Shown one piece after another: positions 955-43,873 of a stretch of DNA of 60,666 nucleotides. The stretch is from Thermoproteota archaeon (GTDB lineage Archaea > Thermoproteota > EX4484-205 > JAAOZP01). A program made the translations under genes and the position numbers. The DNA is taken from assembly GCA_038867695.1 (NCBI GenBank), contig JAWBXT010000002.1:1-60666 (forward strand). The letters are read 5' to 3'. How positions within the stretch are numbered: the stretch's first letter is position 1; every line of letters begins with the position of its first letter. The notes under the pieces are model-generated. The model did no database searches. It saw only the letters and a program-made list of their open reading frames with translations, and was not told the DNA's origin.

Positions 955-1190
955 CTCTTCCTCTTCTTTATAACCAGTTTCTTCTTATCCGAGAGAACCC
1001 TATAATCCTCGCTCAACTTCTTTTTACAGAGAAACCATCTAGCAGCTTTTCTGAGCCTAGTATTAGAAATGTTTTCGAAAACAATTCTCCCTCCTTCTCC
1101 ACCAGCTTTTGCTGAAAGCTTCTTCTCTAGAAACTCTCTAAGCTCCCTTTGAGCATCTCCAGGAAGCTTGGAAGCATCCAGTTCAGCCAT
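951..1190 (-). CDS. Small basic hypothetical protein (79 aa)
   Basis: ORF with a TATA-like CAATTTAAAT about 25 nt upstream of its ATG. Lys/Arg-rich C-terminus; no family recognised. Confidence 0.45.
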   Translation of the reverse strand: MAELDASKLPGDAQRELREFLEKKLSAKAGGEGGRIVFENISNTRLRKAARWFLCKKKLSEDYRVLSDKKKLVIKKRKS

Positions 1191-1223
1191 GGGTAGGCAA
1201 CAAATACTCCTGATTTAAATTGT

Positions 1224-1922: not shown

Positions 1923-2262
1923 TAAGGCTGTTTTTTAAATCACTCATAATTTATAAATTTTATTACAATGTAACAAAATGTTACAAAGAGAGTTAATGGA
2001 CTTTAACCGGTTTTTAAGACATAGGACACTATTAGCTGAAATCCATACTGTTTTCCAAGTCTCTCATAAGGGTCATACTCTAGACTATTACCCGCTTTTT
2101 TCCAACATTCTGTTTAACGAGTCTAAGATTTAAATGAGGCTGATGAATATCCTCCGCTTCTCTATCAATATCTCCTTAGAGAATGTCTTTTCTGACACTG
2201 CTTCACTCTACGAATACCAGTAAGAAGAGTTTAAAAAGCCCTCGTTTAATTGCTTGTGTATC

Positions 2263-3144: not shown

Positions 3145-3157
3145 GCGATAAACAGAA

Positions 3158-5098: not shown

Positions 5099-5637
5099 AG
5101 AATCTCCTGAAGTTTCTTCAAAGTTTTTTCCTTAAGATCTTCTAGGCTACTTTCATTCAACACGTAAACATCGCTTAAGGCAATTACCCCACCCACTCCA
5201 ACTGAAATTTCAACCCTGTCTCTCTCCTCAAGCTCTTTAATCACTTTAGAGTCATCTGGCCTATTCCTATTTGAAAGCCTACTGTACCTTAGTCTTATTG
5301 GCGATAATACTCCTACCGTGGTTACAGAATAGCCCTTTGACTTGAAATATTCAACCTCTTTCAGAGATCTGACACCATCTACGATTATTACATCGCCCTC
5401 TATTTTCTCTATCTTCCTATCGACGAGCATTGCAACAGCATTCTCACCGAGTTCTCTCCTCAGTTCAATCATAAACTTACTCATTTCGATTATATTCTTA
5501 CTCAAACCACGTGCCTCTGCCTCCTCTCTGACAGCATCTCCCATCGACACGATTGGAAAACCTCCTTCACCCATTATCTTGGCGACAGTAGTCTTTCCAG
5601 AACCGGGCATTCCTGTTATAAGTATTAGGTGTTTCAA
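5095..5637 (-). CDS. P-loop nucleotide kinase-like protein (UPF0200 / dephospho-CoA-kinase-like)
   Basis: Walker A GMPGSGKTT right after the start, LKHLILITG. The TTG at 5637 (or 5640) lies about 25 nt downstream of a TATA. The longer track ORF runs into the divergent thpR gene. Confidence 0.7.
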   Translation of the reverse strand: MKHLILITGMPGSGKTTVAKIMGEGGFPIVSMGDAVREEAEARGLSKNIIEMSKFMIELRRELGENAVAMLVDRKIEKIEGDVIIVDGVRSLKEVEYFKSKGYSVTTVGVLSPIRLRYSRLSNRNRPDDSKVIKELEERDRVEISVGVGGVIALSDVYVLNESSLEDLKEKTLKKLQEIL

Positions 5638-5658
5638 CAAACTCTGCAATAGCGATAA

Positions 5659-5669
5659 GGTATATAAAC
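5659..5669. promoter_or_regulatory. Shared, near-palindromic TATA element (GGTATATAAAC) between divergent genes
   Basis: It lies about 25-30 nt from both the TTG at 5637 (minus strand) and the ATG at 5693 (plus strand) in a 55-bp intergenic region. Confidence 0.35.
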
Positions 5670-5692
5670 CATATCCTTGAAATAATTGGGAA

Positions 5693-6244
5693 ATGGTCAG
5701 AGTCTTCGTCTCATTAGACATTGAAGACGACAGTATAGGTAATAGGGTGTCTGAAATACAGAGGAGAATGGTTGAGACCCGTGCAGACTTGAAGCTTGTA
5801 GACACTAAGATTCTCCACATGACTCTGTTCTTCATAGGCGAGATTCACGAGAGTATGGTCAATGAACTATGCAGAGTCCTTTCTAGAGTTGAAGGACGTC
5901 CAGTGGAGATAGAACTCCGGGGACTTGGAGCATTCCCTACGGTCTCACAACCTAGAGTAGTATTTGCAAAAATCAATAAGGGTGCCGATAAGATCGTTGA
6001 CAGGGCTGGAAAGGTTTCTGAAGCTTTGTCAAGCCTTGGTTTAAGGATGAGTGAAGAGTTTTCTCCTCATATAACCTTGGCAAGAGTTAGGAGTCGTATT
6101 GGTGTCGATAAGCTTATAATGTTCATTAAAGATAATTCGGATATTCTCATCGGCGAAACCGTTACCAGTAGGCTTAGGCTCAAGAAGAGCATACTTACTC
6201 CCAAGGGGCCCATATATGAGACCCTCTGGGAAAAAATTGATTAA
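5693..6244 (+). CDS. thpR: RNA 2',3'-cyclic phosphodiesterase / 2'-5' RNA ligase family (2H phosphoesterase)
   Basis: Two HxT motifs (HMTLFF and HITLAR), about 180 aa. Confidence 0.85.
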   Translation: MVRVFVSLDIEDDSIGNRVSEIQRRMVETRADLKLVDTKILHMTLFFIGEIHESMVNELCRVLSRVEGRPVEIELRGLGAFPTVSQPRVVFAKINKGADKIVDRAGKVSEALSSLGLRMSEEFSPHITLARVRSRIGVDKLIMFIKDNSDILIGETVTSRLRLKKSILTPKGPIYETLWEKID

Positions 6245-24759: not shown

Positions 24760-25802
24760 AAAGTGAGTTTAACGGGCCCGAAATCGGTTATAAGATATGT
24801 ATCTTCAATCCTCACTCCGCCAACGCCTGGTATATAGATGCCTGGTTCTATGGTTATGACGTTGCCGGCTTTAAGTTCTTCATTGCTCGATGGAGCAATA
24901 GTAGGCGGCTCGTGAATATCGATTCCAACACCATGCCCAAGCCCATGCATAAAATACTTGTCAAATCCATACTCTGCAAGTATTTCGCAGGCACGCTTAT
25001 CCACTTCGTAAGACCTAGCTCCCGGTAAAGCCTTCTTCTCAGCGGCTCTCTTAGATTCTTCGACTGCTTCAATCATTTCTCTAACAACACTGTTTTCCCC
25101 ATCTCCCTTAAAGACTATTGTCCTCGTCAAATCGCTCTTATAGTTTAAATAATCCGCTCCCACATCAAACAGTACAATGTCTTTCTTCTGTAGCTTTCTG
25201 AGAGAGGGAGTGAAGTGGGGATTGGAGGAATTTTCTCCAAAGGCTACTATGGTTTCGAAAGCTGGTTTAAAAGCTCCCTTTAAAACAACCTTGTAATTAT
25301 ACCGACACGCGATTTCAACTTCGGAAATTCCTTCATCCAATTCTTCCAATACTTCTTTAAATGTTAAGCTTGCTATTTCAGCAGCTTTTTTCAGCCTTTC
25401 AATTTCAAACTGGTCCTTAATCATACGCATTTCACTTACAATCCTGCTTCTAGTTTTCACAAGGACGCCAAGCTCCTCTTCCAACTTCAGAGCATCACTC
25501 ATATCCAGATGGTCGAACTCAACATACTTGAGGCCTCTCTCCACCTCCTTTAGAACCCCCTGGAGAAGCCTCTCTCCTCTTCCTATTTTAATTACTCTAA
25601 CACTATTAATTGAAGATGGAAGGTTAACGCTTTCGAGCGGACTAGTTAGAAACTTGGCATCGCCGCTCTTTGGTATTAATAGGGCTCCTGAAAGAGGTTT
25701 TTCCCAATCAACAGCATACATTATGTTTCCCTGTTCCCGTAGTACGAGAAGATCTATCCCTGTCTTACTCAGCTTCTCCTGTATCCTTCCTATTCTGCTC
25801 AT
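24756..25802 (-). CDS. pepQ: Xaa-Pro aminopeptidase/dipeptidase (M24B)
   Basis: HGLGHGVGIDIHEPP, EPGIYIPGVGGVRIED. Confidence 0.85.
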   Translation of the reverse strand: MSRIGRIQEKLSKTGIDLLVLREQGNIMYAVDWEKPLSGALLIPKSGDAKFLTSPLESVNLPSSINSVRVIKIGRGERLLQGVLKEVERGLKYVEFDHLDMSDALKLEEELGVLVKTRSRIVSEMRMIKDQFEIERLKKAAEIASLTFKEVLEELDEGISEVEIACRYNYKVVLKGAFKPAFETIVAFGENSSNPHFTPSLRKLQKKDIVLFDVGADYLNYKSDLTRTIVFKGDGENSVVREMIEAVEESKRAAEKKALPGARSYEVDKRACEILAEYGFDKYFMHGLGHGVGIDIHEPPTIAPSSNEELKAGNVITIEPGIYIPGVGGVRIEDTYLITDFGPVKLTF

Positions 25803-26325
25803 CAGAAGTCGATGGTTGCAAACGGCTTCTTAAGGCTTGTCTAAGCTCTTCATCACTACGCGCGCCGAAAATGCTTAAGCCAGTAGGAGTAAGCCTTAGC
25901 AGCCTACTCCTACCGCTTCTGCTCGCCTCAACAAGACCCATTTCAACCAGCCTCCGGATTTGCTTATAAGCATGAGTTCCTCTTAAAACAATGATCTTAG
26001 ACTGGGCAATAGGTTGTTTCAAACCTATTAAAGTCAGTGTTTTTAAGCTCGCTCTGCTAATCATCGGTTTAACTCCCAATTTTCTGACATAATTCGTGTA
26101 TTCTGGTTTAACCCTAAGCATATAATTTTCCTTACCAATTTCAACTATCTCAAGGCTCGTATCCCTTGATCTGTATTCTTCAATGAGCTCCTTTAATGCA
26201 TTCTCAACCTTCTCGAGTTTCCTAACTCCCGCTGCCGACTTAAGCTGTAAGAGACTCAGCGGCCTACCTGAGGCGAACAATGCCGCTTCTATCCTCTTTT
26301 TATACTCCGATTCCTTCAAAACCAT
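25765..26325 (-). CDS. scpB: Segregation and condensation protein B
   Basis: IEAALFASGRPLSLLQL..., tandem winged helices. Directly downstream of scpA. Confidence 0.8.
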   Translation of the reverse strand: MVLKESEYKKRIEAALFASGRPLSLLQLKSAAGVRKLEKVENALKELIEEYRSRDTSLEIVEIGKENYMLRVKPEYTNYVRKLGVKPMISRASLKTLTLIGLKQPIAQSKIIVLRGTHAYKQIRRLVEMGLVEASRSGRSRLLRLTPTGLSIFGARSDEELRQALRSRLQPSTSDEQNRKDTGEAE

Positions 26326-26974
26326 TCTCCGACACTATGTAATATTCATCATCTTCTAAAAGAATGTCGAAACCAGGTTCAGACAATACGAAGAGTATCA
26401 ATATGAATGTTCTGGCTGCTTCAAGAGGATTTTTCCCCTCGATCAGGCATCTTACTAGAATCTTGCCTTTACCACGTATCAGTTTTAAAAGGCTCCTTCT
26501 AAACTCTTCAACCTTCTTCTCAATGTCTCTCATGAACTCGTCCTGTTGTGGGACTATTGGTGGCAAAGGCTCTTCTTCAAAAGGCTTTTTGGAATACTCT
26601 TTCTCCATTATCTGAAGAAGTGCTTTAACTAGTTGTTCCAGATCTATAACTGGTTGCGGAGGTCTGAGAGGAGCCTCCAAGGGGCTTATTCTATCAAGTG
26701 CCTCTAAAGGTATGTCTGAAGCCTCCTTGGCTTCCTCGTCACTCCTTTCTTCCTTAGGCTCGATTGATAAGAGGGACTCTGTCTTCCGAAGGTAAACTAT
26801 TGAAGAAGCCAATAGTAAAAGCCCTGAAAGAGTAAATTGCATATACCCTTTTTCACGTAATTCTCTAGATAGCTGTTTCAAGATGATTGATATTTTAATA
26901 TCCCATGGGTTAGCCTTCTTGAGTCTTATCAGGTCGAATATTAATTCAGATGCTTTAGGAGCCTCGTCCAGCAA
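26300..26974 (-). CDS. scpA: Segregation and condensation protein A (kleisin)
   Basis: LIRLKKANPWDIKISIILKQ..., C-terminal WHD (RTFILILFVLSEPGFDILLED). Overlaps the smc stop. Confidence 0.8.
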   Translation of the reverse strand: MLDEAPKASELIFDLIRLKKANPWDIKISIILKQLSRELREKGYMQFTLSGLLLLASSIVYLRKTESLLSIEPKEERSDEEAKEASDIPLEALDRISPLEAPLRPPQPVIDLEQLVKALLQIMEKEYSKKPFEEEPLPPIVPQQDEFMRDIEKKVEEFRRSLLKLIRGKGKILVRCLIEGKNPLEAARTFILILFVLSEPGFDILLEDDEYYIVSENGFEGIGV

Positions 26975-29900
26975 CAGCTATCTCCTCTAAAGCCTTCTCA
27001 CTCGGCATCTCCATAAATCTCGACGAACCTTTCTTAACATATACCCCTATAACCTTGTCAGCCTTACTAACGACAACATCTCTAAGCGATATTACTATCA
27101 TTTGACTGTCTTTAGAAACTTCTTTAAGGAGGTCAGTCATCCTATCGATATTAACGTAATCTAAATGTGCATCCGGTTCGTCGAAAATGTAGAATGCTGC
27201 TGGAAAGAGCTTCTGCATCGCAAAGACTAAGCAGAGTGCCGCAACTGATTTTTCTCCCCCACTTACTCCGCTTATTACTCTAGCCTCCTTACCCGGAAAC
27301 TTGACATAAACGTTTAAGCCTGTTTCAAGAGGATTCTCAGGGTCCTCGGGCTGAAGCCAACCTTCTCCGCCAGTCATTTTATTGAAAAACATTGAGAAAT
27401 AACTATTTATTTTATTTAAGCCATCTAGAAAAGCCTCTCTCTTCCTCCTTTCAATATCATCCATGAACTCTTGGATGCTTCTCCTCTCTTCCTCAAGCTC
27501 GTTAATCCTTTCAAGAGCATTTCTGTAAAAATCGATTTCCTGTTCGTATTGCTTTATGGCGAGCATATTTACTTCCTGAACTTTCTCAAGCTCGCTTTTG
27601 AGAATACTCAGATATCTCTCCACGGGAACTCTCATCTCCTCCGGCACATGGGGCGGCTGACCCATTATCTTATTCCTCAACTCCGTAAGCCTGTTCTCAT
27701 TTACCTCCTTTTCAACCAAGAGCTTTATCTCAGCATCTTTGGCTTTGCTAATCTCTACATTCAACAATTCAGCTTTTTCATCTAGTTTACGTATGGCTTC
27801 AACTAGCTTACTTTGTCTATCTAAATTCTCCTCGTTTTCCTCACCCTTCTTTGTCATTAGTAATTCGATTTTGCTTCTAAGATTGTTTATCAGATCTGTA
27901 GAGCTTTTTATTTCCCTCTTAATACTAAAAATCTTACCAGCTAGCTTTTCCTCGACTGTCTTATACTCCTCTACCTTTCTACGCAGGGTATTAATAATGT
28001 TCTCAATTTCTATTAAACTCCTTTTGATTCGTATTTTTTCACTGCTCAGTTTATCTGATTCTGCCTCAAGCAATCTTATTTTCTTACGAATAGTCCTTAC
28101 TTTTCTCTCTCTTAAAACTATTGAAGACCTCAATCTCAGCGATTCCTTTTCAAGCGAACGTTTTTTGCTAGAATCGCGTTCTCTGAACATTTGATTAAGT
28201 TTCTTGGAGGTCGACAGGTATTCCTCAGCTAGAATTTTCAACTGCTCTTCTAACTTGTTCATGTGTAAATCGATGGCATTCAACTCATTTTCAAGTCTGT
28301 TCCGAAACTCTGAAGCCTCAAGCATTTTCTTATTTAAAGAACGCTTTATATATGCCTCCACTATCTCGATTGTCCTTGATAATTCTCCAGCCTTCTCGGT
28401 AAAACTATTCATGAATTTAAGGAGGTTCCCAAATTCTTTATTGCTATCTTCGGGTATTGAAGCACCCTCATTCGTGAAGACCTGCCCATCTGGAGTCACT
28501 GCTTTGAAACCATTCTTTGCGAAAAGCAGAGCGTCCTCGACACTATTTACTAGAATACTATTCCAGAATATTTTTAAAACGTGTTTTTCAATGCTCTTAG
28601 GATACTTAAGTAAATCCATCATATGCGTACCTCGTCCATTAAGCTTAACGGGCACCTCTTTTCTGGAAACACCCCCCTCAGATGTTAACACTTTGACACC
28701 GACATTTTTTTCTACAAGCAGGTTCATTAATACCAGCATATCAAACGAATTCTCAACCAAAATGGAATCTATCCATTCGCCAGCTAAACTTTCAACAGCC
28801 TTCCTAAAGTTCTCCGGAAACCAGAGGTTTTTCCTTAGAGTCCCATAGACTCTTAAACCTTTTTCTTCTAACCTTCTCTCTACAAGCTCTAATACCGTCT
28901 CCTTATCCTTTCTACTCTTGTAACTTAAAACACCAGATGTTTTTGCAAAGAAAATCCTGAAAGTATCTAGACTTTCAGTGAGAACCTCAAGTGTATTAAT
29001 AATATTGCTAAGCGTCTTTCTCCTCTCTGCCAGAACCTCTTCAAGGTCAGTTAATCTTTCTACAACTCTTCTCCTTCTAGCATCTCTTTTACTTCTTGCC
29101 TTGTTTAAAGCAATTATCCTTCTCTTAATACTTTTATAATGATTTAAAATATCTTTTAACACTTTCTCAGAATCCTTTTCCTCCATAATGGTCTTTTCTA
29201 ATTCTTTTTCAACTATAGTTAGCCTATTTCTAAGCTGAGAAATCCTTTCCATTTCCTGTTTCTCGATTTCCTGCAGCCTTCTCTTCTCATTCGAGATCCT
29301 AGAAAGTAGGTTATCAATTAAAGAGTTCTTGCTTAAAATTACGTTTAGAACTCCCAATAATCGTTTCGTCTTTCTTCTTGCTCTGTACTTTCTATTTTTC
29401 ACTCTTTGAAACTCTTTCTTAAGTGCATCTAGTTCCTCTTTCCTCTCATCCACTTTCCTCAAACATTCGCCGAGCTGTCTTTCATAATCTCTGATTTCAT
29501 ACTCGATTCTAATTCTTTCTGAATCGCCGATTGAGGATGCAGCTTTAAGTAGTTCTTCAGTTCTCTCCATTAGTTTTTTCTTATCCGATTGTACTTCAAC
29601 AAGCTCAGTTTCAAGCCTTTTTCTCAAGGCATGGTTCTCTCCAATCAGTTTAGAAATATCATTAAGTTTACCTACAAGCCTCCAGTATTCAAGCGAGTCT
29701 ATGATAAGTTGTATTTTTTCAACCTCTTTTTCAAGCATCTTCCTTCTCAAAAGGAGGTTTCTCTCCCTTTCTAATTGAAACATCCTTCTATCTATCTCTT
29801 GGAGCCTAGCTTGTGCAACTCTGAGATTATTGTCTGCTTGTTGCAGATTGTTAAGAGCTTCTGCTTTTTTCTCATCGTATTGAGCTAGGCCGAGTGCCTG

Positions 29901-30860
29901 TTCAATCTCCTTTCGTCTCTCAACTGGATTCTTGTCGGCAAGCCTTGATATTTCTCCCTGAAGAATGATATTATATCCTCTAGCCGAGAGACCTGCTGTA
30001 GATATTATGTCTTCAATAACGTTTCTAGGAGTCCTCCTGCCATTGAGGTAATAGGTGCTCTCCCCATCGCGCCCCATCCTTCTAGTTATTGTAATGATTT
30101 TATCCTGACCAGGGATAACAGAATCGCTATTGTCTATGGTTACCCTAACATATGCCTCCGCATCCCTTCCAGCATTATCGTTAACTAGGGATGAAAGCCT
30201 ATCAGTCCTAAGTAGCCTAGGGTTGTTCTCTCCTAACGCGAAGCGTATTGCATCCACCAAATTACTGTTGTGAACTATTACTCCATTTCCAATGATATAT
30301 GATCCAATACCCTTTACATAAAGGTCGTAAACAAATCCTACCCATCGCTTCTCCACGATCCTATCCAAGACATCGGCAATTATTCTCCCGTTTTCAAAAA
30401 CCAGTATTCTGCTACCCAGCGGTAGACTCGATGCTTTAACCCATCTTAACTCATTTCCAGAAGCCACTGCTATCTTATGTTCTGGAGTAACTTCGATAAC
30501 TCTTCCTGATAGGGTTGTAAGCTTCAAAAGCTGCCCCTCGTAAGTCTTCCTAAATAGAGCGCTAATACTGGTTTCCAAACACTTATTTAAGCATCTATAA
30601 TAACTTAGAAGCATCTCTTTATCATAGGGGACTACATACTCCAATCCCCGTTCGCGAATCCTTAAGCCGTTAGAGCAAACATCTCGGAAAATAGCTTCTA
30701 TACTTCTCTCTCCCCAAGGCTGGGCCACGGGCATCCAGGGTGCAATACACTTGCCTGAGCCATTTCTACCGGTCAGGACCGTCAACCCCTTGCTCAGGCT
30801 TATTACTTGCCGGTCCAGTATAGATTTGAAATTTCTTATCTCAATCTTGGTAAGGTGCAA
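26955..30860 (-). CDS. smc: Chromosome partition protein SMC, carrying a mini-intein in the Walker A loop
   Basis: Head IEIRNFKS...GRNGSGK|intein|SNLVDAIRFALG, long coiled coils and a hinge. C-terminal signature SGGEKS and Walker B FYIFDEPDAHLD. 1301 aa including 161 aa of intein. Confidence 0.9.
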   Translation of the reverse strand: MHLTKIEIRNFKSILDRQVISLSKGLTVLTGRNGSGKCIAPWMPVAQPWGERSIEAIFRDVCSNGLRIRERGLEYVVPYDKEMLLSYYRCLNKCLETSISALFRKTYEGQLLKLTTLSGRVIEVTPEHKIAVASGNELRWVKASSLPLGSRILVFENGRIIADVLDRIVEKRWVGFVYDLYVKGIGSYIIGNGVIVHNSNLVDAIRFALGENNPRLLRTDRLSSLVNDNAGRDAEAYVRVTIDNSDSVIPGQDKIITITRRMGRDGESTYYLNGRRTPRNVIEDIISTAGLSARGYNIILQGEISRLADKNPVERRKEIEQALGLAQYDEKKAEALNNLQQADNNLRVAQARLQEIDRRMFQLERERNLLLRRKMLEKEVEKIQLIIDSLEYWRLVGKLNDISKLIGENHALRKRLETELVEVQSDKKKLMERTEELLKAASSIGDSERIRIEYEIRDYERQLGECLRKVDERKEELDALKKEFQRVKNRKYRARRKTKRLLGVLNVILSKNSLIDNLLSRISNEKRRLQEIEKQEMERISQLRNRLTIVEKELEKTIMEEKDSEKVLKDILNHYKSIKRRIIALNKARSKRDARRRRVVERLTDLEEVLAERRKTLSNIINTLEVLTESLDTFRIFFAKTSGVLSYKSRKDKETVLELVERRLEEKGLRVYGTLRKNLWFPENFRKAVESLAGEWIDSILVENSFDMLVLMNLLVEKNVGVKVLTSEGGVSRKEVPVKLNGRGTHMMDLLKYPKSIEKHVLKIFWNSILVNSVEDALLFAKNGFKAVTPDGQVFTNEGASIPEDSNKEFGNLLKFMNSFTEKAGELSRTIEIVEAYIKRSLNKKMLEASEFRNRLENELNAIDLHMNKLEEQLKILAEEYLSTSKKLNQMFRERDSSKKRSLEKESLRLRSSIVLRERKVRTIRKKIRLLEAESDKLSSEKIRIKRSLIEIENIINTLRRKVEEYKTVEEKLAGKIFSIKREIKSSTDLINNLRSKIELLMTKKGEENEENLDRQSKLVEAIRKLDEKAELLNVEISKAKDAEIKLLVEKEVNENRLTELRNKIMGQPPHVPEEMRVPVERYLSILKSELEKVQEVNMLAIKQYEQEIDFYRNALERINELEEERRSIQEFMDDIERRKREAFLDGLNKINSYFSMFFNKMTGGEGWLQPEDPENPLETGLNVYVKFPGKEARVISGVSGGEKSVAALCLVFAMQKLFPAAFYIFDEPDAHLDYVNIDRMTDLLKEVSKDSQMIVISLRDVVVSKADKVIGVYVKKGSSRFMEMPSEKALEEIAVAGRGS
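30267..30749 (-). mobile_element. Mini-intein (161 aa, no homing-endonuclease domain) in the SMC P-loop
   Basis: Begins with Cys (CIAPW), has block B TPEH and ends in VIVHN followed by the +1 Ser. Removing it restores GSGKSNLVDAIRFALG. Boundary codons were checked at nucleotide level. Confidence 0.85.
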
Positions 30861-36357: not shown

Positions 36358-36928
36358 CCTGGTTGCGAAAAGGCTTGTTCAATCAGGCGGCTTCCTTATA
36401 TGGCCCGAGAAGACTGATGAGGGGATTCTACAACCATATGTGCTTGACTTAACGATTATCCTTAGCGACCCGAAGGTTTTCGACAGAGTTGCTGGGAGAA
36501 TGGTAGATATTGTTAAGAGGGAAATTGGAGTCGAAGAATTCAACGCTGTCCTAGGAGTCCCACTGGCTGGAATACCCTATGCCTCCTACATTTCCGTCAA
36601 AACCGGTAAGCCGATGTTGCTCCTAAAAGAGGGAGGAGAAAAAGCTGTAGAGGGTTTATTTAAGATGGGTGATAAAATACTCATAGTTGACGATTTTATT
36701 TCTACCGGTAAGCAGATAGTGAGAGCTATGGATAAGATAGTTTCCGAGGGAGGAGTAGTAGAAGATGCTTTAGTAATAGTCTGCCAAAGCGAAAATACTG
36801 CTGAGAAGCTTAGGAAAAGGGGGATAAGACTACACTTTTTGTTTGATTTTAAAAAACTTGTTAAAAGCCTGAGGAAGCTTGACGCCTTAACTGAAGAAGA
36901 GTATAGGGCCCTTCTACCTAGGGCTTAG
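36338..36928 (+). CDS. Orotate phosphoribosyltransferase-like (type I PRTase)
   Basis: PRPP loop ILIVDDFISTGKQ, VLGVPLAGIPYAS. Confidence 0.7.
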   Translation: MSTSLVNLVAKRLVQSGGFLIWPEKTDEGILQPYVLDLTIILSDPKVFDRVAGRMVDIVKREIGVEEFNAVLGVPLAGIPYASYISVKTGKPMLLLKEGGEKAVEGLFKMGDKILIVDDFISTGKQIVRAMDKIVSEGGVVEDALVIVCQSENTAEKLRKRGIRLHFLFDFKKLVKSLRKLDALTEEEYRALLPRA

Positions 36929-37616
36929 AAGACTCAGATTCCTCAATTAACGGTATAATCTCCTCGATTGTGAATCTTATGAAGGAAGCCGGATCAATCC
37001 TACTAAAGATCGTTACAACGCTATCTCTAGTAATCCCTGCAACATAACCGGTTTTTCTATGAGAAATTACAACGTACCATATGTCCCCGTGTTTTAAATA
37101 GTCTGCGAACAAGCTAGTGTTAGCAAGCGAGGGCCCATAGAGAGAAAGCTTCTTTATATTAGGTATGTCAACATTATCGAAGAAAACCACTTTGGCAGCA
37201 TCGCTGTTAGCATTATGATATTCGAGCATAACCTTCGGAGAGATCCTCGCCTCAACTATCTTTCCGCTCTTGAGAAATATGATTTGGCTGAACATGTTGG
37301 CAACCATATTAGCTATGGGTTTTTTCTCTATCACTATGAGGAAAACCCTTCTTTTACGAAAAACAAAGCTGAAGATAGAGTCTACAGTCTTAACTGCGAT
37401 CTCCGTCTTATCCCTCCTTCTCAGTGTTAAAGGGACATCCCTACTTAAAACTCCTTCAAGCACATTTTGAGAAGCCTTAAGCTCAGCAACTTCAGTAACG
37501 AGTGTTAGATCCGTCCCTTCCAGCGGGGTTTCAACCTTATACCCCTTAAGCCTCTGAGCAAGCTCGTTTTGAGACAAGTATTCGTCAAGCCTGAATACCT
37601 TGCCTGCAGTAACCAT
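36918..37616 (-). CDS. Hypothetical protein (232 aa), divergent from the SMC-like operon
   Basis: Long ORF with no recognisable motif. Antisense ORFs are short. Confidence 0.5.
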   Translation of the reverse strand: MVTAGKVFRLDEYLSQNELAQRLKGYKVETPLEGTDLTLVTEVAELKASQNVLEGVLSRDVPLTLRRRDKTEIAVKTVDSIFSFVFRKRRVFLIVIEKKPIANMVANMFSQIIFLKSGKIVEARISPKVMLEYHNANSDAAKVVFFDNVDIPNIKKLSLYGPSLANTSLFADYLKHGDIWYVVISHRKTGYVAGITRDSVVTIFSRIDPASFIRFTIEEIIPLIEESESSKP

Positions 37617-37752: not shown

Positions 37753-39534
37753 GTGGAGACGGTAGAACAAGAGAGGAAGCTTCGACTCAAAGAGGTGATT
37801 TTAGAGAACTTCATGAGTTACCGATATAGTAAAATACCTATTCGTCCCGGGCTTAATCTTATTCTGGGTCCCAATGGCTCAGGCAAGTCTTCTATCCTCT
37901 GGGGGATTTCGGTTGGACTCGGTCAGTCACGTAGTGGCAGGGCTGAGAGATTGAGTGATTTGATAAGGATTGGTGAGGATATTGCTAGGGTTACTCTAAT
38001 ATTCGATAATTCCCCAGGCATTGATGGTAAGAGACCCATACCCTTCGTGAGGTCTGATGAGCTTGTTATAACAAGGTACTTAAGAAGAGACGGAGAATAT
38101 TGGAGTCAAATAAATTATAATCCTGCTACAAAGATGGAGGTTGACGAAATCCTCTCACTGTTCAGAATAGACCCTTCTAACATGCTTATAATAATGCACC
38201 AGTATATGATCGAGGAATTTGCATCCCTAGACCCTTCTGAGAAGCTTAAGCTGGTAGAAGGCGCTATAGGGCTCTCAGGCTTAAGGGATAATATAAAGGC
38301 TTCAAGAGAAAAGTTGAGCAAGATAGTAAGCGAAGAGAAGGCTGTTGAAGCACTTTTGAACGAGGCCCATGAGACGTTAGAGATGTGGAGAACAGAGTAC
38401 GATAAGCTAGTTAAGAGAAGGGAGCTTCAGTCTCTCCATGCTGAGTTGAATAGGCTTCTCAAGTGGAGTGTTTTCAAGCAACTCAGCGGTGAGAAGAATA
38501 GGATTCAAGAAAAGATGTCTAAGATTGAAGGGAGGATAAAAAGAGGTGATCAAATAGCTACAATAAACATCGAGAAAAGCGAGAAAGTTTGGAATAACAT
38601 AAATAAGGCTAGGATGAAACTAAGGGGGGTTTTCTTCAAGGCTTCAGAAAATAAGGCTAATTTTGAAAGTCTCATCGACGAGTATAGTAGGCTCGATGAG
38701 GAGATAACAAAGTTGATAAGAAAATACGTAAAGTTGAATGTTAGAGCTGAGATAATAAAGTATAGGCTTAAAGAACTTGAGTCTGAGCGTCGTCGCCTTC
38801 AGGATAAGATGAAGTCCGTTGAATCGAAGATAGATGAAATTAAAGGTCAACTCGAGGGTGAAGCACCTGAGGGAGTAGACCCTCCAGATTTGATAGAAAA
38901 GAAAATCAACGACTGCGTTATTCAAATAGCCTCTCTTGGTACGGTTTCAGAGAATGCGGAAGAGCTTTATAAGAACTACCTCAATGTATATAATGATCTT
39001 CAACAGAAAGTTAAAATCGTCGTCGAAAACAGGATGGCTGCTGAAAACGAGCTTAAAGATAGAATGGAGATATGGAGGAGAAGAGTGATTGAAACCGTGG
39101 AGAAAATCAATGAGAACTTCAAGAAGAATATGGAGATCATGGGTGGGACTGGAGACTTACGCTTAGTAAACATGGAGGATATTGATAATGCTGGTCTAGT
39201 GATACTCGTAGGCTTTGGAGGAGGTCCCCTTACAGAATTTAATGTCTATACTCAAAGCGGTGGTGAGAGGAGTGCAACAGTAGTATCCTTCTTAATGGCG
39301 CTCCAATCGCTGGTTAAATCGAGTGTGAGAGGAATCGACGAGCTAGATGTACATATGGACCCGCTCATGAGGAAAAAGTTCTTCCAGATACTTTCGGAAG
39401 TGGTTAAAGAGAACCCTGGAGTTGCCTATCTGTGTATAACTCCCGGAACCCCACCCCCCGTGAGAGATGCACACATAATAGTTGTTCAAAAAGTCCAGGA
39501 CGAATCAAGAATACTTGAAGTCGACTCAGGTTAA
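37753..39534 (+). CDS. Short SMC5/6-like ABC ATPase (593 aa)
   Basis: LENFMSY...LILGPNGSGKSSILWGISVGLG (Walker A). About 280 aa of coiled coil without a hinge-sized domain. QSGGERS signature, Walker B GIDELDVHMDP. Confidence 0.75.
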   Translation: METVEQERKLRLKEVILENFMSYRYSKIPIRPGLNLILGPNGSGKSSILWGISVGLGQSRSGRAERLSDLIRIGEDIARVTLIFDNSPGIDGKRPIPFVRSDELVITRYLRRDGEYWSQINYNPATKMEVDEILSLFRIDPSNMLIIMHQYMIEEFASLDPSEKLKLVEGAIGLSGLRDNIKASREKLSKIVSEEKAVEALLNEAHETLEMWRTEYDKLVKRRELQSLHAELNRLLKWSVFKQLSGEKNRIQEKMSKIEGRIKRGDQIATINIEKSEKVWNNINKARMKLRGVFFKASENKANFESLIDEYSRLDEEITKLIRKYVKLNVRAEIIKYRLKELESERRRLQDKMKSVESKIDEIKGQLEGEAPEGVDPPDLIEKKINDCVIQIASLGTVSENAEELYKNYLNVYNDLQQKVKIVVENRMAAENELKDRMEIWRRRVIETVEKINENFKKNMEIMGGTGDLRLVNMEDIDNAGLVILVGFGGGPLTEFNVYTQSGGERSATVVSFLMALQSLVKSSVRGIDELDVHMDPLMRKKFFQILSEVVKENPGVAYLCITPGTPPPVRDAHIIVVQKVQDESRILEVDSG

Positions 39535-39667
39535 AAGTCGTTTTTGAATTTCAGAAATGCATTACCTAGTATTTTATGGAAAGTACAATGGGAATTAATT
39601 CTCCGAAAGGTTATGTTTATATTTATTTTATTGACCATGGTTTCAAGGTCCAGAGGGATTGAACTAA

Positions 39668-40384
39668 ATGAATCAGTCAAATAGATACGTTGAATTAATT
39701 GAGAGAATAATCTCTCTTTGCGATGAGGTTATTGAGAAAAATATCGACCCATTCGTTGTAGATATCAAGGAGAACCTCAAGAAGCTTAGAGAAGGATTAT
39801 CTGAAATAGATGAGAGAATCCTTGTAATGAACATGGCTGCTCTGCTAAAATTAATCTACGTAATACTGCTTCAACAGGAAGATGTCAAGAAGAGAGCTAG
39901 CAGGCTCTATCTCGATCCTTTCTTAATGGAAATAAGGCTCATGGGGCTTAATAGGGAGAAGCTTGCAGAAGCTTTCCTCAAAGCATTCAGACCGGTTGCT
40001 GAAAATGAACAAGCCACCATGAATATAATGCGAATAGCCTACGGCTACTGGGCTAGCATGAGAGAATACCGACTGCCTGAGATAGTGGAGACCCCAATGC
40101 CCGATGCTCTAAACATGTTCAACGAGCTTCTGAAAATGGAGGAGGCTGATTTCGAAAGAGAGATGGAGAAGATTCTAAACGAGATGGGCCCAGATCCAGT
40201 TGATTACTATAATTTGATAGGTAGGGATGGAGAAGATAGGAAAGTATTCAGAGCATTAGCCTTAAGCTTCCTAATGACAAGGGGCTTAGTGGGAGTCTTG
40301 CAAGACCCCTTGAGTAACAGGGTCTTGGTTTTCAAGACGACTCCGAAGGATGTGGAGAAGCATTCGGTAGCCCTACCGGTATAA
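39668..40384 (+). CDS. Kleisin-like protein (ScpA/Nse4-like)
   Basis: N-terminal NIDPFVVDI...LVMNMAALLKLIYVILL and C-terminal WHD-like RKVFRALALSFLMTRGLVGVLQDP, matching the ScpA architecture. Confidence 0.5.
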   Translation: MNQSNRYVELIERIISLCDEVIEKNIDPFVVDIKENLKKLREGLSEIDERILVMNMAALLKLIYVILLQQEDVKKRASRLYLDPFLMEIRLMGLNREKLAEAFLKAFRPVAENEQATMNIMRIAYGYWASMREYRLPEIVETPMPDALNMFNELLKMEEADFEREMEKILNEMGPDPVDYYNLIGRDGEDRKVFRALALSFLMTRGLVGVLQDPLSNRVLVFKTTPKDVEKHSVALPV

Positions 40385-40396
40385 GGGGCGGGTGCC

Positions 40397-40948
40397 TTGG
40401 AGCAAGAGGAAAGGATAAGGAGCAAGGTTGCGCGGGCGGTGCAGCTCTTACTATTTAAAAGCCATAGGATTCCTGGAGTTAAGGGGTGGGAACTCAAGAA
40501 GAACCTTGGACCAGGCTACCTCTCAATAATTAAGTTTCTTAACACGCGTTTTCAAGAACTGGGATTGACGATAAAGATTGTTTCAGACGATGGAAGTGAG
40601 CTTAGCATGAGCGATGATGAAAGCAAATTATCAACAGCAAGGTTCTACGTTACTCTTAAGGACGAGTTGAGCTTGACTGCTGCGAAAACCCTTGGCTGGT
40701 CGATAGATGAGATTGCTGGATTGGCTGTTGTCATCTCAACAATAATTTCCCACAAGGGCTCAGCCTCAGTTAAGGAAGTCGAAGAGATATTGAAGAAAAA
40801 GTTTCCTGAATGGAAGGTTAAGCTCAACCTAGCCAGGTATATACGGAGGGGGTATATTGCTGAAGATGGAGATAACCTCATATTAGGCTGGAGAACTTTT
40901 GCAGAACTCGACGTCGAAAAATTCGTACATTATATTCTAAGTGCTTGA
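40397..40948 (+). CDS. Tandem winged-helix (kite-like; ScpB/Nse3-MAGE-like) protein
   Basis: Two WH-like halves (AVQLLLFKSHRIPGVKGWELKKNLG...; ...SASVKEVEEILKKKF...YIRRGYI). Starts 12 nt after the kleisin-like gene. Confidence 0.45.
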   Translation: MEQEERIRSKVARAVQLLLFKSHRIPGVKGWELKKNLGPGYLSIIKFLNTRFQELGLTIKIVSDDGSELSMSDDESKLSTARFYVTLKDELSLTAAKTLGWSIDEIAGLAVVISTIISHKGSASVKEVEEILKKKFPEWKVKLNLARYIRRGYIAEDGDNLILGWRTFAELDVEKFVHYILSA

Positions 40949-41002: not shown

Positions 41003-43873
41003 CTAAGCATTTTGAAAGCGACGTCTCTCAGCGTCTACAACCATTTTCACAATATCTTCTCCAGTTATGCTTCTCCTCGCCAATATTTTCTCAACAGTCT
41101 TCAGGCCTAATCCCCTCCCAGCTAGGGCTAGGGCAGCATCTTTACCATATTTCTCTAATAGCTCTGCTGTTTTAGCAATCTTTTTGAAGATCATTCTCGT
41201 CCTCTTGGATTTTCCACGCCTAATCCTGACGCTTGGAGTAGGATTCACACCAAGTTTGCCGCCACATCTGCCACACTTTATCCCTGGAATATATTCCCCA
41301 GGCTTAACAGTCCCGTAGGGGAAACCGCATTCGCTGCACACTAGCTCTAGAGGAGTATTCCTAAGCCTTGCTGAAGCATACATTAGGATTATCTTGTCAA
41401 CTTTCTCAGGTGGATATATGTCCAGATGTCTCTCAGCCTGTCTGAGGATAGGTTTAGCTAAGGATGATGGTTCAGCACCGCTTTCATATATCCTGGTTTC
41501 AATCTCTCCTGAGGCGATTCCTCTAATCATATCCATCAAGGGCTTTACATCATAGTCTTTAGAGAGTAGCTCCTTGACAGCCTCATCGTAAACAATGCTT
41601 CCCTTACTGCTTCTTATGAGCGACTCTAGCCTTATTGAAGTGAGGTCGGCATCCTTCTCTATTATCCCCATCCTCCTGGCAACATGTAGAAACCTCCTCT
41701 TGAAAAGACCCACGTTCTCGATGTTTTCTAAAAGCATCTTCATAACCTCCTTTTCATCAAGTCTCTTAAGCCTGTCAAGTATTATTGACGGTGAGACTAC
41801 TCTCTCAACCATAACCCGATATGGATCCCTGCTAACTGGAATTGTTAAACCTACTTCGGAAAGCACTATCGACCCGACTATCTTGGATAGTGCCCTATTA
41901 CCTAGGTCGCCGAGGCAAGCATGTATAATCGTATAATCACCCCATTTCTCGAAGACTATTCTCTTATCCGTGCCCACTGGTACTCCCTTTTCGAGACATT
42001 CTAAAATCGGCTTGATGACCCTAATAGCAAAATCTTTCTCAACACCGTATTTCTCAGCTATCCCGCCAGCTATCTCCTCTGGGCTGAGTCCTTTTACATA
42101 CTCTTCTTCAACAGTTCTCCTAAGGGCTCCAACTTCCATTGCTGTCTCATAGGTGACAGGTATTTCCTCACCAGTCCAGAAGGGTACCGCGCCCAGAGGG
42201 TCTTCCGCTTTTTTAACGATAACTTTACCGTCGAAAACTTGGACTATAGACCATACTACGCCTCCCATTACAAACTTCGTACCGGGAAGACCTTTTTCTG
42301 CAACAAATTCTTCGTCAAGGTTTCCAACTACAAGGTTTTCCTTCTCGTGGAAAACAGGGTATTGATTAACCTCCGGTATGCTCGAAATATGCTCGAAGAA
42401 GAATCTTATTAGTTCTCTTCTCCTGCCGGGCCTTATCATATCACTATACTTCTCGAAAAGCAACAGCCTGGGATATTGTGAGGAGAGAAACTCTAATACT
42501 CTTTCAAACTCTTCTTTAGAAATCTTTGAATACGGTATGCTTTTCTTAACGAGTTTAAGCATTTCCCCCATGCTATGATGATTTTCCTCTAAAAGCATTC
42601 CGATTACTTGATGTGCGAGAATATCATAAGGAGCCTCTGGAGGTGAGACAGGCTCGTAAATACTGTTCAAGGCCCTTCTTCTTATAACCATCGATTCAAT
42701 AGCATCATCCTCATCCATACATAGGACCATCCCCCTAGATGTTAAGCCGATCCTGTGGCCGCTTCTTCCAATCCTCTGTATAAGCCTTGAAGCCTGCCTG
42801 GGGGAGCCGTATTGGATTACGAAATCTATCAGACCAATGTCTATGCCCAGCTCAAGGCTGGAAGTACATACTAGCCCCCTCAATTCTCCTTCTTTCAAGC
42901 CTTCTTCAGCTCTAACCCTAGCCTCCACGCCGAGCGACCCGTGGTGGACTGAAACAGGTGTTGGAAGATTCATTACCAGCAGCCTGTTTGAAAGTGCTTC
43001 AGCGGTAGCCCTAGTATTGGTGAATAGCAATAATGCGTTGCTTTTACCGAGCATTTCTTTGATTACCCTCAGCCTCGCTGATACTTCCGGGGTTGTCAGA
43101 AGCTTCTCAGCCACTATATAATCCTCATCAAGAACTTCGGGAAGTACAAGGCTTATCTCAATATCCTTAGGCACTGGGGTTACAATGACCTTGAAACCGT
43201 CTTCTGACCCTACAAGGAAGTGTGCAAGCTGCTCTGGCTCACCTATCGTTGCAGAGAGCCCTATAATCTGTATCCTCCTCCCTACAAGGCTCTTGAGCCT
43301 CTCTAAGCCGAGTGAAAGCTGGCTTCCTCTCTTATCAGAGGCAAGCTCGTGAAGCTCATCCACCACAACCCACCTAACCGTTTTCAAATGGTTCCTGAGC
43401 CTGGAGCCTATTAGAAGTATTTGGAATGTCTCCGGAGTTGTTATGAGAATATGGGGAGGACTTAGTGACTGTATCCTTCTTTGAGAAGAGGGTGTGTCTC
43501 CATGTCTTACGGAAAGCTTGAAATCAAGCCTACTTGCCCACCAGCTTATTCTCTCAACCAGATCCCTGTTTAAAGCCCTAAGCGGGGTTACATAGAGCAT
43601 GAAAATACCGTTCTTAACATTAACTCTCTCTCTAACCATTGCGCTTAAAATGGGCAGTAGGGCTGCCTCAGTCTTCCCTATTCCCGTCGGGGCAACTATT
43701 AGAACATTGTTTCCATTGACTATCTCGGGTATTGCTCTAACCTGAGGTTCTGTTAACGGTATTAATCCCCTCTCTAAAACAAGTTTCGCAACAGGCTCGG
43801 CGAGCATCGAAACAACCTCCTCGCTAGATGAGCTTCTCACGAATGATGACTCAAGCATTTGACTGAAAAACAT
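41003..43873 (-). CDS. lhr: Lhr-type large SF2 helicase with C-terminal zinc ribbon
   Basis: APTGIGKTEAA, VDELHE, SSLELGIDIG, QRIGRSGH, DEAD-associated domain, C-terminal CSECG...CGRCG. Confidence 0.85.
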   Translation of the reverse strand: MFFSQMLESSFVRSSSSEEVVSMLAEPVAKLVLERGLIPLTEPQVRAIPEIVNGNNVLIVAPTGIGKTEAALLPILSAMVRERVNVKNGIFMLYVTPLRALNRDLVERISWWASRLDFKLSVRHGDTPSSQRRIQSLSPPHILITTPETFQILLIGSRLRNHLKTVRWVVVDELHELASDKRGSQLSLGLERLKSLVGRRIQIIGLSATIGEPEQLAHFLVGSEDGFKVIVTPVPKDIEISLVLPEVLDEDYIVAEKLLTTPEVSARLRVIKEMLGKSNALLLFTNTRATAEALSNRLLVMNLPTPVSVHHGSLGVEARVRAEEGLKEGELRGLVCTSSLELGIDIGLIDFVIQYGSPRQASRLIQRIGRSGHRIGLTSRGMVLCMDEDDAIESMVIRRRALNSIYEPVSPPEAPYDILAHQVIGMLLEENHHSMGEMLKLVKKSIPYSKISKEEFERVLEFLSSQYPRLLLFEKYSDMIRPGRRRELIRFFFEHISSIPEVNQYPVFHEKENLVVGNLDEEFVAEKGLPGTKFVMGGVVWSIVQVFDGKVIVKKAEDPLGAVPFWTGEEIPVTYETAMEVGALRRTVEEEYVKGLSPEEIAGGIAEKYGVEKDFAIRVIKPILECLEKGVPVGTDKRIVFEKWGDYTIIHACLGDLGNRALSKIVGSIVLSEVGLTIPVSRDPYRVMVERVVSPSIILDRLKRLDEKEVMKMLLENIENVGLFKRRFLHVARRMGIIEKDADLTSIRLESLIRSSKGSIVYDEAVKELLSKDYDVKPLMDMIRGIASGEIETRIYESGAEPSSLAKPILRQAERHLDIYPPEKVDKIILMYASARLRNTPLELVCSECGFPYGTVKPGEYIPGIKCGRCGGKLGVNPTPSVRIRRGKSKRTRMIFKKIAKTAELLEKYGKDAALALAGRGLGLKTVEKILARRSITGEDIVKMVVDAERRRFQNA

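Follow-up and report, generated by a model that had tools for sequence, protein, structure and literature searches.

The three-gene locus and its surroundings

Three co-oriented genes lie on the forward strand of the window, the term used here for the whole 60,666-nucleotide stretch that was analysed. The first (37753-39534, GTG start) encodes an ATPase of 593 aa, the second, ORF2 (39668-40384, ATG start), a protein of 238 aa, and the third, ORF3 (40397-40948, TTG start), a protein of 183 aa. The intergenic gaps are 133 and 12 nt respectively. A preliminary description of this DNA had given the same arrangement, and the ORF list agrees with it exactly; the motifs quoted there, including NIDPFVVDI, RALALSFLMTRGLVGVL and AVQLLLFKSHRIPGVKGWELKK, are all present in the translations. 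Some 30-50 nt before the ORF2 ATG, the 133-nt spacer (39535-39667) has an AT-rich stretch resembling a TATA box, TTATGTTTATATTTATTTTATTG, and possibly harbours a separate, putative promoter for the second and third genes. Homologues numbered 992 for the ATPase (E<=1e-10), 27 for ORF2 and 520 for ORF3 (both E<=1e-3). Judged by this conservation, the three ORFs are genuine genes and not chance ORFs.

The surroundings consist of housekeeping genes, among them those for Trm1, a geranylgeranyl reductase, NAD synthase and LysE. Downstream, the operon converges, as initially described, on an Lhr helicase gene (41003-43873, reverse strand, 956 aa), the two stop codons lying 54 nt apart. This helicase matched Pfam DEAD, Helicase_C, WH_Lhr and DEAD_assoc as well as PRK13767 (516 bits), and it ends in a CxxC...CxxC tail. 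A Cys-rich C-terminal tail defines aLhr1 (PMC8301817), and by its sequence the window helicase is of the aLhr1 type. On the other side, divergent from the ATPase gene, lies an ORF for a conserved 232-aa protein (36918-37616, reverse strand). Neither this protein alone nor its family profile A5 found a match in Pfam, NCBIfam, PADLOC or the PDB.

A canonical SMC operon is located 6.9 kb from the three-gene module. The resident SMC (26955-30860, reverse strand, 1301 aa) has SMC_N and SMC_hinge matches and carries a mini-intein inserted in its P-loop (GSGK/CIAPW...VIVHN/SN). ScpB (25765-26325, reverse strand) was recognized by PF04079 (6e-36), and a 224-aa protein encoded between the two, which has no Pfam match, is presumed to be ScpA. 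The module is a second, chromosomal SMC-kleisin-kite machine beside canonical SMC-ScpAB, as the preliminary description had proposed, with the identity of ScpA presumed.

The ATPase, kleisin and kite proteins

The ATPase is composed of an N-terminal head (residues ~1-170), an antiparallel coiled-coil arm (~171-440) and a C-terminal head (~441-593), and Pfam SMC_N matched residues 12-552 (7.7e-28). The Walker A motif (P-loop) GPNGSGKSS (residues 39-47; 37867-37893, forward strand) is invariant in an alignment of 20 family sequences. Invariant columns are also found in the ABC signature QSGGERS (501-507) and the Walker B/D-loop IDELDVHMDP (528-537), which together span 39253-39363 on the forward strand. 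The family-invariant residues are G39-S47, Q150, S502-R506, D529, E530 and D532. ENFMSY lies at residues 18-23, and the switch region reads CITPG (561-565). These features indicate a split SMC-type ABC head with Walker A, Q-loop, signature and Walker B, in which all catalytic motifs appear intact.

The head halves are about 270 residues apart, giving an arm of about 125-135 residues per strand, or ~19 nm. The apex of the arm (38614-38667, forward strand; residues ~288-305, KLRGVFFKASENKANFES) is unconserved, and in the family alignment A3 it is an indel hot-spot with insertions of 0-100 residues. No Pfam SMC_hinge match was obtained in the ATPase and no hinge fold was seen at the apex. A CxxC zinc hook is likewise absent from the protein, which has no cysteines other than C388 and C561. 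The short arms lacking a hinge-sized domain and a hook, which had been noticed at the outset, are therefore real features of this protein. Some relatives of the ATPase carry a hinge, detectable in P0356, P0328 and P0341, and others carry a zinc hook. A conserved non-coiled break interrupts the C-terminal strand of the arm (38845-38952, forward strand; residues 365-400, G..EAPEGVDPPDL...IASLGTVSENAEE). It is marked by a Pro/Gly cluster and a falling heptad score, and has an invariant G369 and a nearly invariant L395; in human SMC6 and yeast Smc5 its counterpart in the alignment is the part of the arm next to the head. We infer that this break is a 'joint'-like element.

The ATPase was placed by the ranking of profile scores, together with published trees for the same taxa. 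In a single-sequence search of the PDB, Smc5 ranked first (E 6.6e-26, 94 bits). When the family profile A3 was compared with solved chains, all 10 distinct Smc5/Smc6 sequences scored 185-206 bits, whereas Pyrococcus SMC scored 158, Smc2 143 and Rad50 49 bits; the resident SMC scored 112 bits against the same profile. Among NCBIfam models, SMC_prok_A gave 189 bits, which is under its cutoff. The family consensus DEFDVHMDP..NR aligns to LDEFDVYMDMVNR in human SMC6 and VDEINQGMDSRNE in yeast Smc5, and the consensus ITPG aligns to LLTPQ and LITPK in the same two proteins respectively. By sequence comparison the head is nearest to Smc5/Smc6 when set against SMC1-4, canonical SMC and Rad50. The earlier suggestion, that it resembles Smc5/Smc6 more than it does the resident SMC, is borne out by both the scores and the shared DEFDVxMD and ITP motifs.

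ORF2 has an N-terminal helical domain with a DPF motif, a poorly ordered middle and a C-terminal winged helix (~160-225), the last being the best predicted part of its AF2 model (pLDDT ~63-86). The window protein by itself gave no significant match, and comparison with the resident ScpA by hhalign was not significant. Relationships emerged with A4, a profile of the diverse ORF2 family. In the PDB it matched human EID3/NSMCE4B (0.0058), yeast Nse4 (0.024), the ScpA N-domain (0.012, N-end to N-end) and the ScpA C-terminal winged helix (0.012-0.017). Seven of its eight best PDB matches were kleisins, each aligned at the correct end. Pfam Nse4_C was matched by half of the family members (7 of 14, best 3.4e-7). 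The top Foldseek matches of the ORF2 model, weak ones (E 0.05), were to the C-terminal winged helix of ScpA in complex with an SMC head. At the level of the family, with modest E-values of 0.006-0.02 and Nse4_C found in relatives, the sequences identify ORF2 as an Nse4-type kleisin. The ScpA-like ends that the preliminary description saw in it also reappeared in these matches.

ORF3 was modelled by AF2 with a pLDDT of 88.3 and a pTM of 0.74 as two winged-helix domains. The four best Foldseek matches of this model (E 4.5e-5 to 6.5e-4) were MAGE-G1 (Nse3) or Nse1 chains of 5hvq and 7dg2, with MukE and ScpB ranking below them. Pfam MAGE was matched by just 2 of 33 family members (E 0.01), and hhalign gave no significant similarity between ORF3 and the resident ScpB. 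A RING domain is absent from the 183-aa protein. The model identifies ORF3 as a kite of the Nse1/Nse3 type with tandem winged helices, in keeping with the two winged-helix-like halves first described. Profile A4, Nse4_C and the ORF3 model together gave the kleisin and winged-helix folds that had been expected of the two downstream proteins.

Conservation of the operon and comparison with known systems

In all 19 loci with enough downstream sequence the order ATPase-kleisin-kite is kept, and in 16 of them the genes directly adjoin one another. Intervening genes occur in L027 and L028, and in L030, a 77%-identical relative, an inversion has parted the ATPase gene from the kleisin-kite pair, an arrangement in keeping with the possible separate promoter of that pair. 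Apart from one close relative, the locus ATPases are 33-46% identical to the window protein, and the loci span Thermofilales, Bathyarchaeia, Methanomethylicia, Nitrososphaerota and Thermoprotei. A hinge-bearing ATPase relative of 835 aa has the same kleisin and kite partners. This gene-neighbourhood census in Thermoproteota, which the preliminary description had proposed, indicates that the three genes are inherited together.

Two flanking genes recur with the operon. Lhr lies within 6 kb in nine loci, and the Cys-rich tail is present in all eight linked Lhr genes with a covered C-terminus. In 10 of 21 loci a homologue of the 232-aa protein (38-50% identity) is encoded less than 5 kb from the ATPase gene, and this protein is a possible candidate for an additional partner of the complex. 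Besides these two, no flanking family recurred beyond close relatives among the loci compared.

Operons of this type have been described in archaea. Yoshinaga and Inagaki (2021; PMC8665677) reported an SMC5/6-related aSMC clade in the same taxa as the window family, and van Hooff et al. (bioRxiv 2024/25, 10.1101/2024.01.07.573240) described operons of an SMC5/6-related SMC, an Nse4-related kleisin and an Nse1/3-related kite in TACK and Asgard archaea. The window operon is another member. It shares with the archaeal SMC5/6-related complex the three components, the gene order, the coexistence with canonical SMC-ScpAB and the taxa, namely Thermoprotei ('Crenarchaeota'), Methanomethylicia ('Verstraetearchaeota'), Nitrososphaerota ('Thaumarchaeota') and Bathyarchaeia, and no essential difference was found. 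The preliminary description knew of no experimental account of such a complex. Experimental work on archaeal SMC5/6-related operons was indeed not found in the literature, but the operon type itself is already on record from comparative genomics. Arm length, the apex lacking hinge and hook, the aLhr1 linkage and the 232-aa neighbour are not discussed in either of the two studies.

With eukaryotic Smc5/6 the window operon has in common the head nearest to Smc5/Smc6 (DEFDVxMD, ITP), the Nse4-like kleisin and the Nse3/Nse1 kite fold. In contrast to the eukaryotic complex, it has one SMC gene, and therefore presumably forms a homodimer, and in place of Nse1 and Nse3 it has a single kite gene, whose product lacks a RING. 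Its ATPase of ~590 aa, compared with ~1100 aa, has arms of ~19 nm and no hinge. Eukaryotic Smc5/6 also has the Nse2 SUMO ligase and the Nse5/Nse6 loader, and none of these is recognizable among the window's neighbouring genes. Smc-ScpAB follows the same SMC-kleisin-kite logic and order, and weak alignments link the ends of ORF2 to the N-domain and the C-terminal winged helix of ScpA. Unlike Smc-ScpAB, the three window proteins are without Pfam matches to the hinge, ScpA (PF02616) or ScpB (PF04079).

Proposed complex and its function

Very probably the operon specifies an SMC5/6-related complex of the archaeal phylum Thermoproteota, and with good confidence we take such a complex to be the best explanation of the locus as a whole; the clamp action and the role in repair put forward below are its tentative part. 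In a model drawn from the solved structures of Smc5/6 and Smc-ScpAB, two ATP would be sandwiched between the heads of two ATPase subunits. The kleisin would contact one subunit at the neck, through its N-terminal helices, and the second at the cap, through its C-terminal winged helix. With a kite dimer seated on the kleisin middle, DNA would be clamped between the engaged heads on one side and the kite-kleisin module on the other. The arms, ~19 nm long, end without hinge or zinc hook, so we think that the hinge-less form would act as a local ATP-gated DNA clamp, not as a long-range loop extruder. The ring or clamp geometry is conjecture for a pair of subunits that have neither hinge nor hook to hold them together.

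Given the repeated linkage to aLhr1, the likeliest job of the complex, as of eukaryotic Smc5/6, is in repair, by processing DNA junctions or stalled forks; we propose this putative function tentatively. Replication-fork structures are named as the preferred target of archaeal Lhr in a passage of one study (PMC7437997). The same complex may instead serve chromosome organization or segregation, as a second condensin-like activity and partial backup of SMC-ScpAB, the adjacency of Lhr being inherited synteny; we regard this as somewhat unlikely. About half of the loci, including most of those from Bathyarchaeia, have no Lhr within 6 kb, and the loci share ancestry and therefore are not independent samples for the linkage. 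In L025 the canonical SMC-ScpA-ScpB operon is followed directly by the SMC5/6-related one, which has the same orientation. Against a role in chromosome organization, hinge-less arms of ~19 nm would fit condensin-type loop extrusion poorly, and the aLhr1 linkage persists across lineages whose ATPases are 33-41% identical to the window protein and in which every other flank is different. In L030, too, Lhr has stayed beside the kite gene in spite of the inversion.

A defence module of the Wadjet, MukBEF or Lamassu type, directed against plasmids or viruses and with its nuclease effector lost or encoded elsewhere, is very improbable. Kleisin-like and winged-helix partners accompany an SMC-like ATPase in SMC-family defence systems as well, Wadjet and MukBEF combine an SMC ATPase, a kleisin and a tandem winged-helix kite as the window operon does, and MukE was among the lower structural matches of ORF3. 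An integrase gene lies upstream of the operon in L029, and a passage in PMC10586767 states that eukaryotic Smc5/6, too, restricts viral DNA. The ATPase matched PADLOC profiles weakly (mad3 85, LmuB 76 and JetC 33 bits), but these matches reflect generic ABC-ATPase features and fall below the SMC families (Smc5 94, SMC_prok_A 189 bits). ORF2 and ORF3 matched none of JetA, JetB and LmuC, and no JetD or LmuA nuclease is encoded nearby. Lamassu as a specific candidate was rejected by the LmuB score, the missing LmuA effector and the lack of any PADLOC match for ORF2 and ORF3. The locus is a housekeeping neighbourhood and not a defence island, and the operon occurs across the major sampled Thermoproteota lineages with conserved flanks, unlike patchy defence islands. 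The Wadjet-like surveillance module offered as an alternative in the preliminary description is thus disfavoured by the PADLOC profiles and by the neighbourhood. Least probable of all is an ATPase of the Rad50, SbcC, RecN or ASRP (ClsN/Sph) type followed by two unrelated genes. RecN, Rad50, ASRP/ClsN and Lamassu LmuB share with the window ATPase a short coiled coil and the lack of a canonical hinge; its ~600 aa recall RecN and ASRP, and the NCBIfam ASRP profile also has 593 positions. Their head similarity to it is much lower, however, with 49.6 bits for ASRP against a cutoff of 300, at most 66 bits for Rad50 against cutoffs of at least 700, and 38 bits for RecN (NCBIfam), and Rad50 came far below every SMC in the PDB searches. 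ASRPs and Rad50 possess a zinc hook (PMC9389158), which the window ATPase lacks. None of these proteins is paired with an Nse4-like kleisin and an Nse1/3-like kite, whereas the kleisin and kite genes here are strictly co-inherited with the ATPase gene.

The SMC5/6-related complex may be taken one step further, in a proposal that we consider speculative and rather doubtful. The hinge-less 'mini' SMC5/6 of ~19 nm would be the prevalent form in Thermoproteota and would work with aLhr1, and perhaps with the 232-aa protein, as a helicase-coupled clamp at junctions and forks. If this is true, SMC5/6-type function would need neither long arms nor a hinge, since in a single clade the apex has switched among three states: hinge, zinc hook or neither. 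Helicase-linked repair, and not loop extrusion, would then be the role from which the SMC5/6 lineage started.

The operon and its ATPase

Three co-oriented genes on the forward strand encode what is very probably an archaeal SMC5/6-related complex. These are an ATPase gene (37753-39534, GTG start, 593 aa), ORF2 (39668-40384, 238 aa) and ORF3 (40397-40948, 183 aa), which are separated by gaps of 133 and 12 nt. Their coordinates and strand were confirmed by ORF listing, and all motifs cited in the preliminary description were found in the translations. The operon converges, as had been described, on a 956-aa Lhr helicase gene on the opposite strand (41003-43873, -) with DEAD, Helicase_C, WH_Lhr and DEAD_assoc domains, which ends 54 nt past the end of ORF3. 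Evidence from the head, kleisin, kite and co-inheritance agrees with the SMC-kleisin-kite module first proposed: the operon codes for an intact SMC-type ATPase with a Smc5/6-like head, an Nse4-like kleisin and an Nse1/3-like kite, and it is strictly co-inherited.

The ATPase matched SMC_N over residues 12-552 in Pfam, with no match to SMC_hinge. Cysteine occurs only at C388 and C561, and a zinc hook is therefore absent; the protein has neither hinge nor CxxC hook, in agreement with the first reading. Against solved structures, the single sequence matched Smc5 best (6.6e-26), followed by Pyrococcus SMC (6.6e-22) and Smc6, with Rad50 at 4e-10. A profile built from 20 diverse members of the ATPase family (A3) scored all ten distinct Smc5/Smc6 sequences at 185-206 bits, the Pyrococcus SMC head plus coil at 158 bits, Smc2 at 143 bits, the resident canonical SMC at only 112 bits and Rad50 at 49 bits at most. 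The head is thus closer to Smc5/Smc6 than to the resident SMC, as had been claimed from motifs. In alignments, the family consensus 'RAVDEFDVHMDPxNR ... ITPG' stood opposite 'RCLDEFDVYMDMVNR ... LLTPQ' in human SMC6 and 'RVVDEINQGMDSRNE ... LITPK' in yeast Smc5. Placement with Rad50, RecN or ASRP was rejected because of low scores, the missing zinc hook and partners of the wrong kind; in NCBIfam, ASRP reached 50 bits (cutoff 300), and Rad50 and RecN also fell far under their thresholds. An identical ATPase is on record from a 'Thermoproteota archaeon' MAG, and relatives of about 78% identity carry the label Brockarchaeota.

Among 1.84 billion representative proteins searched, about 55 were full-length representatives of the ATPase family (540-685 aa, 540-847 bits), past which scores fell sharply to 254 bits or less, with SMCs of 1040-1200 aa. 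In the family alignment, the arm apex is an unconserved indel hot-spot. At residues 365-400 the coil is interrupted by a conserved break, which aligned with the SMC6 and Smc5 arms close to the head. We infer an arm of roughly 19 nm that would end not far above a joint-like element. A few closely related ATPases differ at the apex. P0295, P0302 and P0304 (L032, 2105-5248) are about 1020-1047 aa and have long coils with apical CxxC motifs (IRCDKCGS, IKCDKCGS, ITCERCGS) that appear zinc-hook-like; no kleisin or kite gene was found within 5 kb downstream of P0295. P0328, P0341 and P0356 (L033, 5001-7508) bear a hinge (SMC_hinge, 4.6e-11 in P0356), and the genes next after P0356 include homologues of the kleisin (2e-9) and the kite (8e-11) described here. 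The short hinge-less architecture and this apex diversity are modest new leads.

The kleisin, the kite and the resident SMC-ScpAB

ORF2 is fast-evolving, and only 27 close homologues were found. Neither the single sequence nor a narrow profile rose above noise in Pfam, NCBIfam or PDB. A family signal emerged only with a diverse alignment (A4) of the genes next after the ATPase in distant syntenic loci (24-32% identity). The best PDB match of this profile was human EID3 (NSMCE4B; 0.0058); both ends of ScpA followed, the N-terminal domain at 0.012 with the two N-ends aligned and the C-terminal winged helix at 0.012-0.017, and then yeast Nse4 (0.024). Nse4_C of Pfam was found in seven of the 14 A4 members (best 3.4e-7). 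At the family level, the kleisin-like nature proposed for ORF2 therefore holds. The AF2 model of ORF2 is of low confidence (pLDDT 56.7 overall), as expected of a kleisin modelled alone. Its best-predicted part is the C-terminal winged helix (about residues 160-225), and its best Foldseek matches, ScpA C-domains bound to SMC heads (E 0.05), are no more than suggestive.

ORF3 is well conserved, with 520 homologues. Single-sequence and narrow-profile searches of Pfam, NCBIfam and PDB gave noise only, and Pfam MAGE was found in just two of 33 kite family members (E 0.01). The model of ORF3 was confident (pLDDT 88.3) and consists of two winged helices, as the preliminary description had proposed. 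Its four significant structural matches were to MAGE-G1 (Nse3) and Nse1 chains taken from Nse1-Nse3(-Nse4) structures; below these came other Nse1/3/4 entries, MukE and ScpB.

A separate canonical system lies nearby, as had been noted. The canonical SMC (26955-30860, -, 1301 aa) contains a hinge and a mini-intein of about 160 aa directly after the GSGK of its Walker A P-loop (GSGK/CIAPW...VIVHN/SN), and ScpB (25765-26325, -) matched PF04079 (6e-36). The 224-aa product of the gene between them (26300-26974, -) is presumed to be ScpA; it had no Pfam match at E<=0.001, and its end-to-end alignment with the profile of the second-system kleisin was not significant by hhalign. Nor was the match of the kite profile to the resident ScpB. 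In the distant relative L025, a canonical SMC-ScpA-ScpB operon, which also appears to be intein-bearing, immediately precedes the SMC5/6-like operon; the canonical SMC there (85-4146), directly upstream, shows a faint intein-domain match near its N-terminus.

Co-inheritance and linked genes

The operon was compared across 21 distinct loci: the window, 11 archaeal loci among the matches listed in a species-level genome scan with a generic P-loop pattern, and nine from contig look-ups. The predicted co-occurrence of the three genes was upheld, since every one of the 19 loci whose sequence continues downstream past the ATPase gene has a kleisin and then a kite homologue. The ATPases of the compared loci are 33-46% identical to the window protein, except that of L030 (77%). 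The three genes abut in 16 loci. One gene is inserted between ATPase and kleisin in L028 (7959-8327, a Roadblock/LC7 protein) and four in L027 (8010-10596, including DUF835, a KaiC-like ATPase and a V4R protein). In L030, an inversion parts the ATPase gene from the kleisin-kite pair, leaving Lhr beside the kite and the gene for a 232-aa protein on the ATPase side; a V4R protein is also encoded beside the ATPase gene there (4969-5820). The 133-nt ATPase-kleisin spacer of the window (39535-39667) holds an AT-rich stretch, a putative TATA-like element, which fits this inversion. This suggests that ATPase and kleisin-kite form two transcription units in the window lineage; in most other lineages the genes overlap or abut.

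When all 449 ORFs of 100 aa or more in the 21 loci were clustered, there were only two recurrent real families beyond the core genes, the 232-aa protein (10 loci) and Lhr (nine loci). The remaining flanking families either recurred in four loci or fewer, and then in close genomes only, or were antisense shadow ORFs, and recurrent small-ORF clusters were rejected as antisense shadows inside the ATPase, Lhr and 232-aa genes. The gene for the 232-aa protein (36918-37616, -) is found upstream of the ATPase gene and points away from it, and in the 10 loci its homologues, 38-50% identical, are no more than 5 kb from the ATPase gene. No family was found for it in Pfam, NCBIfam, PADLOC or PDB by single sequence or profile; it is a candidate for a fourth partner in the complex.

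Lhr is found no more than 6 kb from the operon in the window, L001, L002, L021, L023, L026, L028, L029 and L030, often convergent and directly adjoining. Eight of the linked Lhr proteins have a sequence that reaches the C-terminus, and each of the eight ends in a CxxC...CxxC tail, the defining mark of aLhr1, an uncharacterised class of Lhr helicase without conserved gene context according to the Lhr survey (PMC8301817). Linkage to aLhr1 and to the 232-aa protein likewise provides modest new leads. L002 has two Lhr paralogues, one on either side of the operon. A type IB topoisomerase gene lies directly upstream and divergent in L026 (1-1314, Methanomethyliaceae MAG) and a type IA topoisomerase gene about 3.5 kb upstream in L027 (374-2452, Hecatellales MAG), which may be coincidence.

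Published relatives and possible role

Operons of this kind have been reported by comparative genomics. Yoshinaga and Inagaki (2021; PMC8665677), accepting sequences of 500-1500 aa, found 80 'SMC5/6-related aSMC' homologues, 66 of them from TACK, and a clade from Crenarchaeota, Verstraetearchaeota, Thaumarchaeota and Bathyarchaeota grouped with Smc5+6. An operon type of SMC5/6-related SMC, Nse4-related kleisin and Nse1/3-related kite was described by van Hooff et al. (bioRxiv 10.1101/2024.01.07.573240), with kleisin and kite genes adjacent in 31 of 31 cases, pairs tabulated in Thermofilales, Methanomethylicia, Korarchaeia and Bathyarchaeia, and the contigs SOJC01000029.1 and BEHE01000017.1 named. 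Because taxa and architecture are the same, the window operon is regarded as a further member; together with the profile ranking, they place it, on sequence grounds, in the published clade. Neither paper discusses the short-arm architecture or the linkage to aLhr1 and the 232-aa protein. The earlier statement that no experimental description is known stands, as no experimental study of such an operon was found in the literature, but the kind itself was already known.

By analogy with solved Smc5/6 and Smc-ScpAB structures, the ATPase would form a homodimer with ATP-engaged heads, the kleisin would link one subunit at its neck with the other at its cap and would carry a kite dimer, and DNA would be clamped on the engaged heads. 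Given the short arms and the lack of a hinge, a local action on DNA is probable, speculative as this is. The aLhr1 linkage and the replication-fork preference reported for archaeal Lhr (PMC7437997) lead to the speculation that it processes forks or junctions. A role in repair is conceivable, falling a little short of an even chance. The main functional rival, that the complex serves chromosome organisation, is rather unlikely. Defence of the Wadjet or Lamassu type, including the Wadjet-like surveillance first entertained, was rejected: the PADLOC matches of the ATPase were generic only, ORF2 and ORF3 had none, no nuclease is encoded nearby and the neighbourhood is of housekeeping type.

Of all SMC complexes, eukaryotic Smc5/6 is understood least, and work on its origin has led back to relatives in archaea. 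The aLhr1 linkage suggests a pointer to the ancestral role of SMC5/6. The window holds no new kind of system, and its leads deserve a proper census and biochemistry. The archaeal complex has only three subunits, all small, with one SMC and one kite, and it comes from thermophile-rich lineages; it would be a far simpler target for biochemistry and structure determination. Because its arms are short and hinge-less, it would also allow a test of how far SMC function depends on arms and hinges.
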